Shown: in pieces, positions 44,784-53,068 of the stretch
Numbering within the stretch: the stretch's first letter is position 1
How the letters are laid out: each line of letters begins with the position of its first letter
Source of the DNA: a virus
Virus record (IMG/VR): IMGVR_UViG_3300032397_000002
Span: 1,579 to 65,578 of that record
Direction: 5' to 3' (one strand)
DNA: 64,000 nt
Notes under the pieces: generated by a model
Seen by the model: the letters and a program-made list of their open reading frames with translations, nothing else
What the model was told of the DNA's origin: nothing
Database searches by the model: none
Program-made: the position numbers and the translations under genes

Positions 44784-44878
44784 TGTGGTGAGCCTCCATG
44801 GAAGGCACCTTAACCAGAACCAGGTCCGAGAGTCAAGAGGCAATCTTCCTTGCATGGGTCACCAGGAGAACCGGTAAC

Positions 44879-47800
44879 ATGTCCATGATAATCGATGGCG
44901 TATTCGCCTCTGAGGCGATTGATTCCAGTGGGGAAATCCTGGACGTAGAGGGCTGCGACATCAGTGACATGGAGCAGGGTTCTGGAGTCCTCAACTGGGA
45001 GCACCGAGGCGACGACGCCGCCGGCGCAAGTGCCAACGACATCATCGGCAAGGTGGTCTTCTGCAAGAAGATTTTTGGGCCCGAGGACTGTACCGACAGC
45101 CGCCAGCTGGAGTACTGGCAGAAGATACAACTCCCAATGATTTACGGTATTTGCAGGCTCTTTGATGGTTCGGGGCACCCAGGCGCCATCGCAGCTGCAG
45201 CCATGATTCGCGACTACCAGAAGAATGGCGAGCCCTTGCTCATCCGGTACAGCATCGAGGGCACCACCCTGGAGAAGGAGAAGGGCGGCAACCGGCTCCT
45301 GCGCTCCATTGCTCGTCGTGTCGCGGCTACCATTAAGCCCTGCAACAAGTCTTGTCACTCTGGCGTCATCGCTGACCCCAACGACCCCACGGTCAAGAAG
45401 CAAGAGCACGCCCACCCGAACTTCACCCCGCTGGGTGGCTCGATGGAGTGGGAAGGCAAGCCGGAGATCGACTCGCCTGAGATTCGCAAGGCTCTGGAGG
45501 CCGGCAACTACAATTCCGCCCCTGGCACCCTTACCGGTGGCTCAGCTCTGCAGCGGGAAGATGCTGGCCTGCGCAACCGCGTCAAGGCGGCTGTGCGGGA
45601 CTGGGACCGCAAGACCCCGTTCAGGAAGTTCCTCAAGCACCGCCTGCCAGAGGCCAGTGATGGCTTCATTGACCGTTTCGCCGACCTGGTCCACGACTAT
45701 ACCGTCAAGAAGGCTCTGAAGGAGACCGTCAGAGAATACTTGGTGAAGAAAATCGTCGAGAAAGCCAAGGCGGCACCAAAAGCCAAGGCGTCAAAGCCGG
45801 CACCAGAGCCCAAGGCAGCAAAGGCCCCCAAGGCAGCAAAGCCGGCACCGGCACCAGCACCTGAGCCGGAATCCGATGTTGAAGTCGAGTCCGATGGCCC
45901 TCTGACTATCAAGGGCAAGCCTGTCCAGCTGAACCCCGGCATCGAGAAGCCCCACTTCGACGAGAACACCGGCGTACTCCACACTCCCAGGGGCAGCTTC
46001 CCTCTGTACATCCCCAGCCGGGACAGAGACACCGCAGATGCAGGCCAGAAGTTCGCCAACATCATGGCTGACCCGAAGGTCGAGAAGTTCCATGACTACG
46101 CCATGGAGAACTGGGCCAAGGTTCACCAGCATCTGAAGGCCGGCACACTGCCTCCAGAGGTCGTGATGCACGGAGTGCTCTTCAGCCAGTTGAGCCCGAA
46201 CACTCCGGTGCCCATGCAGGAGATGATGTACGCCCACCTCGTGGACAGCATGAAGGCCACCGGTGCAGACCCACGACAGCCCGGCTTCAGCGACAAGCTC
46301 AAGCAGGACTGGTTCAATCGTGACCAGCCCCAGAAGTTCCCTGACCACAGCCCGGAACACTGGGCCCGCTTGGGTGACCAGCTTCGTAACAAAATCGACT
46401 CGAAGCTCACTGGCCGCAAGGCTGGCGAGATCGGCGGCTTCATGCTCGCCAACAACAAGATGAAGAACATGGACCAGTACCATTCTCTTCACAACTCCCT
46501 GACGGAGCTGATTGGTCGCCACCGTGCTGATGCTCGCTCTGGTGTTGAAGAACTGATGCACCACAAGACCCAGGCTGGCAATTGGGAGAACAAGCGCCGT
46601 CTCCGAACAGAGAAAGGCCAGACTGACATTGGACCTTACACGGCAGGCCCCAGTGTTCCCGGCCTTGCAACCAAGACGGCCCGCTACACCTACGGCATGT
46701 TGGGCGGTGGCAATGTCACCGTGCCAGATACCCACTTCAGCCGCTACCTCTTTGGTCTTGACAAGCGCCAGGATGGGGCCACCATCCGACACCTCCGCAA
46801 TGAGGTGCTCTGGAACCCCAACAACGCCCACATCATGGGTGCCATCGACCGGTACTACGGCCAGCACCACGATGCCGTCAAGCACATGCTCCAGCACCCT
46901 CGGTGGGGGCACCTCTTCAAGGACAACCCCGAAGACGCCATCTTCCCAGCTTTCTGGAAGAACTGGGTCGGCATTGTCCCCCATGAGGCAAGCCGAGGCA
47001 TGAAGACTGGTGGCTTCAACGAGGCCACCGACCACCGTCCCTTCTGGGACGCTGTGGGTCCGTACATGAACAAGTCCGAGACTGGGATTGACACCAACCT
47101 GGCCGCTCAGACCGCGAAAACCCATGCGCAATGGGTTGAAAAATACGGCGAGATGCCGGCCCTCCTGATGTACTTCCACTACCTGGTGCCTCAGCTCTTG
47201 GCGTCCAGCGAGAAGGCAGCGAAGGCGCAACAGATTGTCAAGTTCGAGGAAGCGGCCATCGAGCTGTCGAAGGCAGACAGCATCACCCCGAGAGATCTCC
47301 AAGGGAATCGAATCCCAGCTTCGCAGGCTCCAGCGGCAGCTCCACGCCCCGAGGTGGCCTTTGACCCGAAGGTGGCTGAAGCCGCAAGACAGAGGGAAAA
47401 TCCGAAGTACAGGAATCTCGACGAAATCCCCGAGACGGTGCAGTTTGGCGGCAAGACCGTCAAGCCTGGCCACGGCTACATCCCTGGCGGGAAGCAGATG
47501 GCCTTCTTTGGCGCCACCCCTGAGCATCTCATCGGCGTTCCCCGCAACAAGGCTCAGTCCTGGACCACCGAGGACCTGATGAAGATCCCCAGGGCCAGCG
47601 GCGCGAGCGTCCAGCGGTACCCCGAGGAACTGGCGGCTCCCAGCATTGTCAGCCACGCTGTCCATGGCGTGCCTGAGTACACCCACCACGACGACGTTCG
47701 CAACCTGGTCGACGGGCTCGACTTCGATGCCGAGAAACAGGCGAGCTTCTCTGGCATCAACCAGGCGCAGAGCTTCTGGACCGTGAACAAGGGCCACAAG

Positions 47801-48571
47801 GTCTACGTCAAGGCCAACCACGACGAGAGCGACTTCGACGAGCCCAGCCGAGAAGGTCTGTACCACAACCTAGCCAGAGATTTCTTCGGCATGGGCAAGT
47901 ACGTGACCCCGACGGGAGTCGTGCTGCACCCTCGCACTGGCCAGAAGCATGCGGTCATCGAGAATGTTGCTGGTGGTGAGCACCTGGATACCGAGAATCC
48001 CGAGCACAAGCAGACCATGCAAAACCTCATGGCCAGTGGCGAGCTGCACAAGATGACCATGATGAACGTCATCGCAGCCAACCATGACCGGCACCGTGGC
48101 AACTTCATGATGACTCCTGGGGGCCTGAAACTCATCGACCATGGCTACGCCTTCGCTGACAAGGACCTCCATGCGACCCCTACCCCGGACTACATCAAGT
48201 ACCACGACCTGATGACGGCTTCTCCGAATGACCCGAGGGACCTGGCCAGCATCGAGGCAAAGCTCCGCTTCCACCCTGAAGCAGCGAAGTGGCTCCAGGC
48301 GCTGGACCCCCAGCAGCTTGACATGCAGATGCGGCGCCACGGTGTGCCAGAGAGGTACGTTGATGAGGCCCGCCGCCGGCTTGTCGCCCTCCAGCACGAG
48401 AGCCGCGACCCCAAGGCAACCATCGTTTCGATGATGCGGGCTCCCTTCCACACCGCGTGGGTGCCACCGGAAGAGCGAAAAGGCCCCAAGCCCTCCAGCT
48501 CTGACTCCCAGTCCGATGTCTCGCCTCCACGTGGCGCCCCTGGACAAAAACCTCAAGGTAAGGTAGGGTAA
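44879..48571 (+). CDS. Prohead protease polyprotein: protease, HhH-GPD-like domain and HipA/PI3K-like kinase
   Basis: IDGVFASEAIDSSGE, NWEH, YSIEG, PCN (protease); LSPNTP, GLATKTARY, VPDTHFSR; YVK, DRHRGN, IDHG; AGGAG SD. Confidence 0.8.
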   Translation: MSMIIDGVFASEAIDSSGEILDVEGCDISDMEQGSGVLNWEHRGDDAAGASANDIIGKVVFCKKIFGPEDCTDSRQLEYWQKIQLPMIYGICRLFDGSGHPGAIAAAAMIRDYQKNGEPLLIRYSIEGTTLEKEKGGNRLLRSIARRVAATIKPCNKSCHSGVIADPNDPTVKKQEHAHPNFTPLGGSMEWEGKPEIDSPEIRKALEAGNYNSAPGTLTGGSALQREDAGLRNRVKAAVRDWDRKTPFRKFLKHRLPEASDGFIDRFADLVHDYTVKKALKETVREYLVKKIVEKAKAAPKAKASKPAPEPKAAKAPKAAKPAPAPAPEPESDVEVESDGPLTIKGKPVQLNPGIEKPHFDENTGVLHTPRGSFPLYIPSRDRDTADAGQKFANIMADPKVEKFHDYAMENWAKVHQHLKAGTLPPEVVMHGVLFSQLSPNTPVPMQEMMYAHLVDSMKATGADPRQPGFSDKLKQDWFNRDQPQKFPDHSPEHWARLGDQLRNKIDSKLTGRKAGEIGGFMLANNKMKNMDQYHSLHNSLTELIGRHRADARSGVEELMHHKTQAGNWENKRRLRTEKGQTDIGPYTAGPSVPGLATKTARYTYGMLGGGNVTVPDTHFSRYLFGLDKRQDGATIRHLRNEVLWNPNNAHIMGAIDRYYGQHHDAVKHMLQHPRWGHLFKDNPEDAIFPAFWKNWVGIVPHEASRGMKTGGFNEATDHRPFWDAVGPYMNKSETGIDTNLAAQTAKTHAQWVEKYGEMPALLMYFHYLVPQLLASSEKAAKAQQIVKFEEAAIELSKADSITPRDLQGNRIPASQAPAAAPRPEVAFDPKVAEAARQRENPKYRNLDEIPETVQFGGKTVKPGHGYIPGGKQMAFFGATPEHLIGVPRNKAQSWTTEDLMKIPRASGASVQRYPEELAAPSIVSHAVHGVPEYTHHDDVRNLVDGLDFDAEKQASFSGINQAQSFWTVNKGHKVYVKANHDESDFDEPSREGLYHNLARDFFGMGKYVTPTGVVLHPRTGQKHAVIENVAGGEHLDTENPEHKQTMQNLMASGELHKMTMMNVIAANHDRHRGNFMMTPGGLKLIDHGYAFADKDLHATPTPDYIKYHDLMTASPNDPRDLASIEAKLRFHPEAAKWLQALDPQQLDMQMRRHGVPERYVDEARRRLVALQHESRDPKATIVSMMRAPFHTAWVPPEERKGPKPSSSDSQSDVSPPRGAPGQKPQGKVG

Positions 48572-48575
48572 GCTC

Positions 48576-49805
48576 ATGGAAGGCCTTCAAAACCTGTATC
48601 TTCTCTGTCAGATTCACCCCCATGGGGATGAGCTGCACACGACCGTCATTGGCAAGTTCTACCTCGACAGCGAGCACTTCGAAGTCCTTGAAGACCACGT
48701 TGGCTGGTTGGGTGACCTGCAGAAGCAAAGCCCAGCAGAGGCCTCTCGCGTCATTTGGCGCCTGGCCAATAGCATGTACTACAAGGTCGTCAACATGGAG
48801 GACATGCGCCAGGGGAAGCATCCTGAGCTTATCAACGAGGAGCCCATACCCCCAACGGCCGGTCCAGAATCCCGTTTTGAGTACCACCGGGTAGGAATGC
48901 CTGAAGCGCAGCTCGTGGAGTTCCACGAAGGCAAGGCGTACCTCGATGGCCACCCGCTGTCACCCCAGGACCTACAGCATATGCTTGACAACGTACAAGC
49001 TGGTTCTGCTACTCTCGGATACAAGCAGGCAGAAGATGACCTGCAGAAGTCCGAGGAGTTCTATATGACGTTGGCCAAGGTTGAACCACATCTCGACGCA
49101 GCCCTTCAGGGTCTCCGAGCAGCAGTCAAGGCGGGGCATGTACACCCTGACGTGCTCAAGCACCTCACCGGGGAGATTTTCACTGACTCGATGGTGAAGG
49201 GCATGGGCAACAAGAAGGCCTACATGGACTTTCTCAGCCGGCCCAAGCAGGGCGTCCACATCCGCATGGACGGGAACGATTTCGGTGGCATCAACAAGGT
49301 CCATGGCTTCGAGACTGGCAACAAGGCCATCACCGCCCTGGGCGGTGCAGTGCGCGAGGCCATGGATGAGGCTGTTGGTAGAGCCAACGGCAAGGCGTTT
49401 CGTATCGGTGGAGACGAGTTCCATGCCTTCGTGCCATCTCACGAGCATGCAGCTCAATTTGCCAGGGCTCTTCGTCAGAAGCTGGAGGCTATCCCTGCTG
49501 TCGGTGGTACCCACAACCTGAGCATGAGCCTTGGTTTCGGGCACACACCAGACCACGCAGAGCTGGCCATGATAAATGCCAAGGGTGCCAAGAAAGCCAG
49601 TGGTGCCAAGCCTGGTCAGGCCAAGACCCACGCAGCCTCACAGGTGCCTGGGTACGAGGGACTCATTCCCACCGGTGCAGATCAACTGCCCCTGAAGCAG
49701 ATTCCTGAGGCACCGGCACCCGTCGCTCCGGCACCAATCAAGACACCAGAGCAGCCCTCAACGCCGACGTCGATTCACCCGCCGGCGCTTGGGAAGCCTA
49801 CCTAA
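48576..49805 (+). CDS. GGDEF-domain (diguanylate cyclase family) protein
   Basis: TDSMVKGMGN, MDGNDFGGINKVHG..TGN, FRIGGDEF, SMSLG. Confidence 0.88.
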   Translation: MEGLQNLYLLCQIHPHGDELHTTVIGKFYLDSEHFEVLEDHVGWLGDLQKQSPAEASRVIWRLANSMYYKVVNMEDMRQGKHPELINEEPIPPTAGPESRFEYHRVGMPEAQLVEFHEGKAYLDGHPLSPQDLQHMLDNVQAGSATLGYKQAEDDLQKSEEFYMTLAKVEPHLDAALQGLRAAVKAGHVHPDVLKHLTGEIFTDSMVKGMGNKKAYMDFLSRPKQGVHIRMDGNDFGGINKVHGFETGNKAITALGGAVREAMDEAVGRANGKAFRIGGDEFHAFVPSHEHAAQFARALRQKLEAIPAVGGTHNLSMSLGFGHTPDHAELAMINAKGAKKASGAKPGQAKTHAASQVPGYEGLIPTGADQLPLKQIPEAPAPVAPAPIKTPEQPSTPTSIHPPALGKPT

Positions 49806-50099
49806 GCAGTCCTTACATGTTCTCTTGTGTCCGTAGAACTGCAGGCTAGCTGCCAGCAGGTTCCGGCACTTGTTGCATTGCCTAAGTCCCTGAATTTCAT
49901 TGCAGCTTTGACACCGGCCATTCTTGTCCAGGCGTCGATGCTCTGAGCAGATGCCGCAAGGCACTGGATATTTCTTCGCGAAGTAGGCACGGCTACGGCA
50001 GGCCTCGCATTGGCTCATGCGGCCACCGGGGCCACGGTCTGGCCTCTCGTGAAAGTCACTCAATGGCTTGGGTAGGCCGCAGAGGCTGCATTGCTTCAT
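49758..50099 (-). CDS. Multi-Zn-finger protein
   Basis: KQCSLCGLPKPLSDF...CEAC and further CxxC pairs. Confidence 0.55.
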   Translation of the reverse strand: MKQCSLCGLPKPLSDFHERPDRGPGGRMSQCEACRSRAYFAKKYPVPCGICSEHRRLDKNGRCQSCNEIQGLRQCNKCRNLLAASLQFYGHKRTCKDCLGRLPKRRRVNRRRR

Positions 50100-51676: not shown

Positions 51677-53068
51677 ATGGCTACTGAAGTGACGCAAGCA
51701 CTGCTCAAGGCTCTCGAAGCCGGCAACTACAACCAGGCTCCCAGCACTCTCGTGCAGGGTGGCTCCCTCCAGATTGAGGATCTCTCGCCGGTCATGCACA
51801 ACGTGACCTTCGACGATTCGCACATCAAGCTCCAGAAGATGGTCAAGGTGGACAGCTGCAAGTCGACCCTGGCGCAGTTCAACCGTCAGCTCAGCTACGG
51901 TGTCTTCGGCGGGTCGGCTCAGCTCGAAGGCGCAGTTGGCCAGGAAGAGACGAGCGACTTCGTGCGTATCGTGGTTGCGATGGCGTACTACTCGCACATT
52001 CGCCGGGTTTCAATCGTGGCGAACATGGTCGACACTGCCGATGGCGTGAAGGCTGAAGAGCGGGCAGCGTCTGACGCGGCCAAGAAGCTCGCAGCTGACA
52101 TCGAGTTCGATCTGTTCCGTGGCAAGGCTGACTTCTCGAACGGTGGTCTGTTCGACGGCAACCAGCTCGCCATCCCGGGTCTCCCCTCGATGCTCGGCCT
52201 CGATGCCCAGATTCGTCAGTCGGACTCGGAGCGCAATGCTACCGACCTGATGTTCGGCGAGTACGGCAGCGACGACACCGTGGTCATCAGCGGTGGCGGC
52301 ACCCTCAGCCAGGACATGATTGAGGACGCCAGCGTGCGTTCGGCCATGAACCTCGGCTCGGCGGACAAGCTCCTGGTGGACCCCAAGGTCCTCTCGGCGT
52401 ACAACAAGATCAGCTTCGGCAAGGAGCGCATCGTGCTGGCAGGTTCGGCACAGGATGCAACCGGCGCCGAGCTTCGCAAGCAGTGGGTCAGCAACGGTGT
52501 TGTCGGTCTTGAGGCCTCGCGCTTCCTGTCTGGCAAGACCCGCCCCTCGGCTGCACGCAGCAATGGTCCCTCTGCACCGACCATCGCGAGCACCACCCCG
52601 TCAGGCGCAAGCACCAGTCTCGCACTGGGCACCTACGTGTGGTACGTGACCTCTGTCAACGAGCTGGGTGAGTCGCCGAAGTCGGCTGCTGCATCGCAGG
52701 CTTGCTCGGCTGGCGACCAGGTCACCGTGGCCATCACGCCCCCGGGCACTGGCACTGTGCGCTTCTTCAATGTGTACCGCTCGGCAGCGGGTGGGTCGGC
52801 AGCATCGGCTCGCTTCATCGGCCGCGTGTCCTACACCGGCGCAAGCCCCACGAACTTCGTGGACCTGAACAACAAGCGGCCTGGTTTCGTGACCGGCTTC
52901 CTGGTTCAGGGCGACACCATGGCCATGAAGGAGCTGTCTCCCTACAGCCGCCTCAAGCTGGCTGTGTCGGACCTCAGCATTCCTGAGGCGCACTTCCGAT
53001 TCTGCACCCTGGCTGTTCACGAGCCCCGCAAGAACGTGCTCATCGACAACCTTGTCGGCAGCTTCTAA
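51677..53068 (+). CDS. Major capsid protein (SPO1/Twort-like, with FN3-like insert)
   Basis: KALEAG...GSLQIEDL, IEFDLFRG, Y.WYVTSVNELGES, NVYR; strong SD and terminator. Confidence 0.88.
   Translation: MATEVTQALLKALEAGNYNQAPSTLVQGGSLQIEDLSPVMHNVTFDDSHIKLQKMVKVDSCKSTLAQFNRQLSYGVFGGSAQLEGAVGQEETSDFVRIVVAMAYYSHIRRVSIVANMVDTADGVKAEERAASDAAKKLAADIEFDLFRGKADFSNGGLFDGNQLAIPGLPSMLGLDAQIRQSDSERNATDLMFGEYGSDDTVVISGGGTLSQDMIEDASVRSAMNLGSADKLLVDPKVLSAYNKISFGKERIVLAGSAQDATGAELRKQWVSNGVVGLEASRFLSGKTRPSAARSNGPSAPTIASTTPSGASTSLALGTYVWYVTSVNELGESPKSAAASQACSAGDQVTVAITPPGTGTVRFFNVYRSAAGGSAASARFIGRVSYTGASPTNFVDLNNKRPGFVTGFLVQGDTMAMKELSPYSRLKLAVSDLSIPEAHFRFCTLAVHEPRKNVLIDNLVGSF

Follow-up and report, generated by a model that had tools for sequence, protein, structure and literature searches.

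A divergent phage GGDEF protein linked to the prohead protease as a candidate for head-assembly cargo

Positions 48576-49805 of a 64,000-nt stretch of viral DNA (the window in what follows, which corresponds to positions 1,579-65,578 of the IMG/VR record IMGVR_UViG_3300032397_000002, 168.6 kb in full) hold a gene coding for a true but divergent GGDEF protein, located in the phage head module immediately downstream of a polyprotein with a probable prohead protease domain. From conserved residues, gene order and gene fusions we propose, with moderate confidence, that this protein would be an active GGDEF cyclase, free of feedback control, which serves as cargo of head assembly, being recruited with the protease, cut at a linker and carried into the host along with the DNA. 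An earlier reading of the gene (the original prediction), which saw in it either an unregulated enzyme making a non-canonical dinucleotide or a weakened decoy, is partly supported: it was right about the unregulated enzyme and the altered pocket, and it overlooked the connection with the head module and with the prohead protease.

Identity and active site of the GGDEF protein

The assignment is based on both profiles and fold. Pfam GGDEF (PF00990) matches residues 223-329 of the 409-residue protein with 33.3 bits, the cut-off being 23.8, and TIGR00254 gives a score of 22.4, below its cut-off of 37.4. An AlphaFold (AF2) model built from 68 homologues has a mean predicted local distance difference test score (pLDDT) of 87, and in the VIA fold comparison residues 185-360 match WspR, DgcB and PleD with Z scores of 17-18 (root mean square deviation, rmsd, 2-4.5 Å; about 150 residues aligned); Foldseek matches the model to the GGDEF fold with an E value of 6e-8. 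Together with the catalytic residues described below, the Pfam score and the Z values confirm that, as claimed, the phage protein is a GGDEF enzyme whose catalytic core is intact. Two other assignments were tried and rejected, namely the mCpol/Cas10 palm (Z 11.5 versus 17-18 for GGDEF, with Pfam mCpol at E 0.1 and in a relative only) and the class III cyclases (Z about 12 versus 17-18 for solved diguanylate cyclases, DGCs). In the model, the GGDEF domain comes after two stalk helices (residues 171-185 and 191-202), and from about residue 185 the protein can be superposed on the coiled-coil stalks of both DgcB and WspR-GCN4. A wide turn like that of DxLTGLxNRR follows (D204..G211-N212-K-K), in which D204 is invariant in 139 sequences and G211 and N212 are found in 138/139. 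As had been noticed earlier, no recognisable sensor domain is detected by Pfam; yet the first 150 residues make up a conserved domain that is modelled with confidence (hereafter the N-domain), for which Pfam, PHROGs (best E 0.53) and the ESM Atlas gave no match. Fold searches covered the N-domain only as part of the whole model, and their lists were filled by GGDEF-domain matches.

The family to which the protein belongs is large. A word-indexed search recovered 137 homologues of similar length and 32 longer ones, and a profile made from the N-domain only, run on 1.84 billion proteins, identified 322 clusters at 50% identity. One full-length member was found in 185,579 species-representative genomes (L033; CALMSM010000181.1, a 45-kb contig in a metagenome-assembled genome, MAG, of 'Candidatus Saccharibacteria'); this is most likely a phage contig mis-binned into the MAG, and it therefore gives no clue to the host. 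Since the remaining matches in species-representative bacterial genomes are ordinary cellular GGDEF domains with 22-35% identity, the family is essentially phage-only. When compared with three close relatives, the N-domain and the GGDEF part have a ratio of nonsynonymous to synonymous substitutions (dN/dS) of 0.04-0.07 and the C-terminal tail has one of 0.2-0.4; the gene gives 0.08 against the loci L003 and L004. All these values are approximate because dS is near saturation.

The register of the active site was fixed by HMMER alignments to WspR and to Geobacter Hypr GGDEF, and it is the same as that of the by-eye PleD alignment in the original prediction, with Asn at D344, Gly at K332 and RANG at the RxxD inhibitory site (I-site). 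Accordingly, Asp232 is the first metal-binding Asp (PleD D327), as had been proposed, and Gly237, Asn240, Lys241, Phe245 and Asn249 correspond to PleD K332, N335, D336, H340 and D344, respectively; K336, K339 and K340 stand in place of PleD K442 and R446, K336 being the K442 equivalent. The motif set of active DGCs is present (G278-G-D-E-F282, D232, N240, R276, and K336). The RIGGDEF motif is intact, as stated by the original prediction, although the coordinates given for it there (49407-49421) are those of the GGDEF pentapeptide and the full motif extends over 49401-49421. Of 259 GGDEF domains from the family, 92% retain D232, 95% N240, 93% K336 and about 85% GGDE-x, with a GGD (not GGE) centre in essentially all members, and from this conserved catalytic core the cyclase of the window is probably active. 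The I-site Asp, on the other hand, is never present, position 272 being G, A or S in 68/68 aligned homologues, so the absence of an inhibitory site holds for the homologues as well. In comparison with the canonical DGCs (PleD, WspR, and DgcB; PF00990), the window protein therefore shares the fold (Z 17-18), the GGDEF motif, the metal Asp, the equivalents of N335, R366 and K442, the wide turn and the N-terminal helical stalk. It differs from them in having Asn for D344, Gly for K332 (with Lys at +4) and Phe for H340, in lacking the RxxD I-site, and in carrying a phage-only 150-residue N-domain, instead of a Rec, PAS, GAF or membrane sensor, on a gene of the head module.

The guanine-reading Asp (PleD D344) is thus absent, with Asn249 in its place, and this replacement is accompanied by others. 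At the positions of K332, D336, H340 and D344, the canonical haplotype K-D-H-D is found in 78 members and the derived haplotype G-K-F-N in 74, including the window gene, with the intermediates G-K-F-D (14 members), G-K-H-N (8), and G-K-H-D (8). Positions 237 and 241 covary tightly (about 110 members have G-K and about 85 have K-D), and the reappearance one helical turn on, at 241, of the Lys lost at 237 suggests that Lys241 compensates for the loss of the transition-state Lys (PleD K332), whose role in GGDEF enzymes has been described (PMC12943098). This Lys at +4, covarying with the loss of K332, had been overlooked in the original prediction. As for residue 249, conservation of the substitution was found within the 39-member clade of the window gene, where Asn occurs in 38/39, but not in the family as a whole, where Asp is the more frequent residue (152 D, 94 N, and 4 T among the 259 domains). 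A FastTree phylogeny of 139 members gives 17 N/D changes at this residue by parsimony, at least 9 of them forced by well-supported branches, and the forms fused to the protease mostly have Asp (53 D, 5 N), as does Myxococcus phage Mx1. Therefore, Asn249 is a feature of clade and haplotype and not a family signature, and the alignments indicate that it is a conserved part of a derived active-site variant and no lone oddity.

The product of the K-D-H-D half of the family should be cyclic di-GMP (c-di-GMP), as predicted from these residues, and the G-K-F-N half, which includes the window gene, may have an altered purine preference. A changed preference is plausible because the Asn carboxamide can pair with N1/N6 of adenine and because the Asp-to-Asn change in the NKxD motif of GTPases shifts their specificity. 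The many N/D exchanges could just as well indicate that the two residues support one reaction, and a literature search for D344N/A/S and for Asn at the D344 position found nothing relevant. In the Hypr GGDEFs (GacA, GacB, and Bd0367), which make 3',3'-cGAMP (cyclic GMP-AMP), a change of the residue at the D344 position alters purine choice, and the Goldilocks model requires a GGDEF, not GGEEF, centre for this activity (PMC6456294). The window protein resembles them in being GGDEF, not GGEEF, and in its changed D344 position. However, it lacks Rec, it is phage-encoded and not cellular, and it has Asn instead of the defining Ser/Thr (Thr is found in 4/259 family members); for this last reason it is not a Hypr GGDEF, and that it works like one, with an altered purine choice, is an idea of low probability.

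Association with the head module and its probable prohead protease

Gene order is constant in Mx1 and some 24 related IMG/VR loci: polyprotein (with the protease), GGDEF gene, in some cases small genes, a conserved 148-residue protein (p148), a scaffold-like protein and the major capsid protein (MCP). In seven IMG/VR loci the protease, the N-domain and the GGDEF domain (PR, N, and GG, respectively) are fused in frame, as confirmed on the DNA, and the same fusion is present in 30/32 of the longer homologues, the shortest of which (about 755-820 residues) consist only of protease, N-domain and GGDEF. The architectures of 130 further representatives were N-GG in 73, PR-N-GG in 33, N alone in 22, PR-N in one and N-GG-GG in one. 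For the one PR-N protein, a 251-residue GGDEF gene lies 3 nt downstream (PR-N + GG); Mx1 divides the unit at the linker between two genes that overlap as TAATG (PR + N + GG); and in the window the GGDEF gene is separate from the protease (PR + N-GG). Since PR-N-GG, PR + N-GG, PR + N + GG and PR-N + GG have all been seen, all four ways of cutting the unit exist, at two linkers. In the window, the 4-nt gap between the two genes suggests that the GGDEF gene is apparently coupled in translation to the polyprotein gene. A programmed frameshift joining them was also considered and set aside, with no further search for evidence, given that they lie in different frames and that the GGDEF gene has a good start with a ribosome-binding site. 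The N-domain always occurs with GGDEF, fused or in a neighbouring gene, and never with another enzyme instead (322 clusters, with 130 representatives classified). Some members from metagenomes (P0256, P0207, P0123, P0091, and P0176) have a C-terminal extension into a PBECR5 nuclease, a GNAT acetyltransferase or DUF3626, and from their domain composition they are read as multi-effector versions of the N-domain + GGDEF unit.

The prohead protease domain of the polyprotein is a probable one, recognised by its fold. A model of the N-terminal 230 residues (from 19 sequences; pLDDT 79.5) was compared with 48,161 chains, and the best matches were T4 gp21 (Z 9.2, rmsd 2.8 Å over 118 residues) and the assemblins of varicella-zoster virus (8.9), human cytomegalovirus (7.0) and Kaposi's sarcoma-associated herpesvirus (5.8), with unrelated folds trailing at Z 5.1 or less; the top Foldseek matches were likewise all assemblins or gp21, and weak (E at least 0.016). 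Homologous polyproteins begin at the position of Met28/Met30 (MSMIIDGV...), so the true start is probably 44879 (M28) or 44885 and not the first ATG at 44798. Just past the protease domain (about 45488-45570, + strand) lies a copy of the N-terminal arm of the MCP (KALEAGNYN.AP..L..G.ALQ.ED), whose counterpart in the MCP gene is at 51700-51790 (+); the copy is kept in 19 homologous polyproteins, and the arm is present in all MCPs examined. In many relatives the N-domain + GGDEF unit occupies the slot that the C-terminal kinase domain has in this polyprotein, so that the C-terminal slot of the protease polyprotein takes interchangeable enzymes as putative cargo.

The linkers carry candidate cleavage sites. 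In the linker between the N-domain and the stalk, a first motif, [ILVM]156-x-K158-[AMS]-E160, has K158 in 118/139 and E160 in 120/139 sequences, and a second, L166-x-K168-[IVA]-E170, has L166 in 124/139 and K168 in 127/139; in the fused forms, the same pentapeptide stands at both borders, protease/N and N/GG. In the window, [ILVM]xK[AMSTVI]E is present in two copies in the GGDEF protein and in three copies in the scaffold-like one (LVKAE, LGKSE, and LPKVE), with 0.14 copies expected in each. This distribution fits a maturation protease that would cut after Lys at these candidate sites, and the enrichment in the scaffold-like protein fits a putative substrate of the same enzyme. Cutting after Lys, if it takes place, would explain why gene fission at the linkers is tolerated.

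The family is most likely a variant of the "polyvalent protein" theme of Aravind and colleagues, as judged by analogy. In polyvalent proteins, GGDEF is a rare domain, PBECR is a domain class of proteins packaged in the virion and injected, and the assemblin-like peptidase, to which a processing role is ascribed, is always C-terminal (Iyer, Burroughs, Anand, de Souza, and Aravind, 2017; PMC5512222). The likeness lies in unrelated enzymes strung together among virion genes, with predicted processing, packaging and injection, and in a repertoire of GGDEF, PBECR, GNAT-type and assemblin-like domains. In all loci the GGDEF unit is found among virion genes, between the prohead protease and the scaffold/MCP, and several enzymes are combined in the relatives (protease-N-GGDEF, N-GGDEF-PBECR5, and N-GGDEF-GNAT) and in the adjacent protease-kinase polyprotein, although not in the 409-residue gene alone. 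In contrast with the known polyvalent proteins, the peptidase here is N-terminal, GGDEF is the constant partner across a phage group, and in the window it is a separate gene. Another precedent is that of T4 Alt and the internal proteins IPI-III, which are packaged in the capsid, cut by the prohead protease gp21 at a short motif and injected with the DNA (PMC5512222). Enzyme, targeting element and motif differ (L/I-x-E in T4; here the candidate Phi-x-K-[AMS]-E, Phi being a hydrophobic residue), and packaging has been shown for T4, whereas here it is predicted from gene fusion and gene position.

Genomic setting

The window codes for a DNA polymerase III alpha subunit, a ribonucleotide reductase, DnaB, a RecA-like and a GroEL-like protein, a terminase and SU10-type capsid genes; the coordinates of the features discussed are collected in Table 1. 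No DNA-level match was found by megablast of 15 kb of the window against 50,697 phage records, and the sole isolate relative at the protein level is Mx1 (169.6 kb; MCP identity 60%). In this phage, the products WNM70323 ('hypothetical protein') and WNM70324 ('nucleotide cyclase') are the orthologous unit in the same slot, with 38-46% identity; they differ in the split at the linker and in having Asp at the D344 position (G-K-x-D type). Neither the Mx1 genome note nor a 2026 myxophage survey mentions the gene of the GGDEF unit, so that the published record consists of the annotation only.

Table 1. Features of the GGDEF gene and of its head-module neighbours (window coordinates)
Feature	Position	Strand	Remarks
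Upstream polyprotein, 1257 residues	44798..48571	+	Protease domain, copy of MCP N-arm, middle domains, C-terminal PI3/PI4-kinase-like domain
Assemblin/T4 gp21-like prohead protease domain	~44885-45400	+	Fold match; invariant H40 and S123
PI3/PI4-kinase-like (HipA/CtkA-type) domain of polyprotein	47399-48568	+	Pfam 28.7 bits, cut-off 27.1
GGDEF protein gene, 409 residues and stop	48576..49805	+	ATG 4 nt past stop of upstream 1257-residue gene
N-domain, residues 1-150	48576..49025	+	Alpha/beta; LEDH and FEYHR..G motifs; pLDDT ~90
Flexible linker, residues 151-170	49026..49085	+	pLDDT 54-55; LQKSE (49041-49055) and LAKVE (49071-49085)
Helical stalk (171-202) and GGDEF catalytic domain (~203-365)	49086..49670	+	Fold match, column counts
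Substrate-binding alpha1-alpha2 segment DGNDFGGINKVHGFETGN, residues 232-249	49269..49322	+	G-K-F-N haplotype
RANG, residues 269-272, in slot of RxxD I-site	49380..49391	+	Five residues before GGDEF
RIGGDEF active-site motif	49401..49421	+	R276 = PleD R366; D280 metal ligand; E281 general base
C-terminal tail, Pro-rich, disordered	49671..49802	+	Poorly conserved; pLDDT <65; dN/dS 0.2-0.4
Conserved head-module protein p148, 148 residues	50201..50647	+	Syntenic in ~20 loci and in Mx1
Scaffold-like Ala/Pro-rich protein, 318 residues	50690..51646	+	Three [ILVM]xK[AMSTVI]E motifs
MCP	51677..53068	+	60% identical to Mx1 MCP; conserved N-terminal arm L-x-K-A-[LM]-E-A-G-N-Y-N

The gap of about 400 bp between the GGDEF gene and p148 contains, on the opposite strand (49758-50099, -), an open reading frame for 113 residues, rich in Cys with multiple CxxC, which overlaps the 3' end of the GGDEF gene by 48 nt. 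About 20 related loci keep it in the same gap at 30-82% identity, among them Mx1, in which it is unannotated, and it is probably a real zinc-ribbon gene. In three IMG/VR relatives (L006, L018, and L020) extra genes lie between the GGDEF gene and p148, in gaps of 2-6 kb, which makes this junction an insertion hotspot of the head module.

Competing explanations and significance

According to the cargo reading, the GGDEF protein would be produced late, alongside the polyprotein of the prohead protease, and would enter the procapsid with the protease or through it. The protease would then cut the linker at the conserved K-[AMS]-E sites, freeing a fragment of stalk plus GGDEF that would leave the capsid with the DNA and dimerise via its stalk. 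In the new host cell, a cyclic dinucleotide made without feedback would reset second-messenger signalling or disturb nucleotide-based defence. A further elaboration, which we regard as unlikely, is that the G-K-F-N forms have switched purine, giving cGAMP, c-di-AMP or another non-canonical product, and that, being carried in the capsid and released at infection, they hijack or jam signalling or immunity of the CBASS type (cyclic-oligonucleotide-based antiphage signalling), N/D toggling reflecting an arms race over the nucleotide.

Several points weigh against the cargo reading. Packaging is a deduction from gene fusion and gene position only, and the fused arrangement could just as well ensure that protease and enzyme are co-expressed, with later release in the cytoplasm. 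The N-domain is never found on other cargo and is therefore not a general capsid-targeting module, and in the window the GGDEF gene is separate from the protease, so that the free protein would have to be recruited. The low Pfam score and the replacement of both K332 and D344 mean that activity of the window protein would not be assured, and some 8-10% of the members are degenerate (e.g., GGDKF, GGDNF, or N232) and yet retained, which hints at a role independent of catalysis. As regards the protease itself, the Z values that support its fold are middling and its domain is unseen by sequence: Pfam gave no match, the PHROG head maturation protease an E value of 0.34, and phmmer and profile searches of the PDB nothing meaningful. 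Because sequence methods miss the domain, its assignment relies on the fold, the invariant His/Ser pair and the Mx1 annotation.

The explanation that survives best after the cargo reading, possible although rather improbable in our judgement, is that of a late cytoplasmic diguanylate cyclase, not packaged, for which the link to the protease would only ensure timing and stoichiometry. Once cut free, the enzyme would raise c-di-GMP late in infection, and its purposes might be, for example, to stop motility or development, to change the cell surface or to block superinfection. The catalytic evidence is the same for both explanations; besides, the gene stands alone in the window and in most relatives, and an N-domain specific to the GGDEF enzyme might regulate it instead of serving to target it. 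However, recurrent in-frame fusion, in many lineages, to a protease that acts inside the procapsid would drag the enzyme into the shell, the slot between the protease and the scaffold/MCP is fixed in every locus, and the fusions to PBECR5 and GNAT match injected polyvalent proteins (PMC5512222).

A head structural or assembly protein that keeps the GGDEF fold as a core, scaffold-like or nucleotide-binding part, catalysis being dispensable, is a still more doubtful alternative. It would account for the location in the head module, for the 8-10% or so of members that persist with broken catalytic motifs and for the loss of K332 and D344 in the window gene, but the conservation of metal, base, phosphate and general-base residues at about 90%, together with a dN/dS of about 0.05 in the catalytic domain, is hard to explain without catalysis or nucleotide binding. 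The decoy put forward in the original prediction, a catalytically weakened protein forming dead heterodimers with host diguanylate cyclases, is very improbable: the missing I-site, the altered base-reading residue and the loss of K332 agree with it, but it fits poorly with the conservation of the full catalytic set (about 90% for D232, N240, GGDE, and K336; dN/dS 0.04-0.09), with the putatively compensating Lys at +4 that covaries with the loss of K332, with the absence of close cellular relatives whose dimer interface could be mimicked (22-35% identity to cellular GGDEFs) and with the canonical K-D-H-D forms that fill the same gene slot in sister phages.

The biological interest of the cargo reading is threefold. 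Myxococcus xanthus is genetically tractable, and its motility, exopolysaccharide, development and nucleoid organisation are controlled by c-di-GMP and cGAMP; as the large phage-confined family has a cultivable member, Mx1, that grows on this bacterium, the idea is directly testable. In addition, the paired K-D-H-D and G-K-F-N haplotypes, with their natural intermediates, provide a ready series for the study of purine choice in GGDEF enzymes, for which Ser/Thr (Hypr) is, to our knowledge, the one solution studied so far. Finally, phages destroy or sequester the cyclic nucleotides of the host, and a phage that supplies an unregulated dinucleotide cyclase of its own, physically tied to the capsid protease, would, if the reading is true, follow the reverse strategy and represent a new class of capsid cargo.

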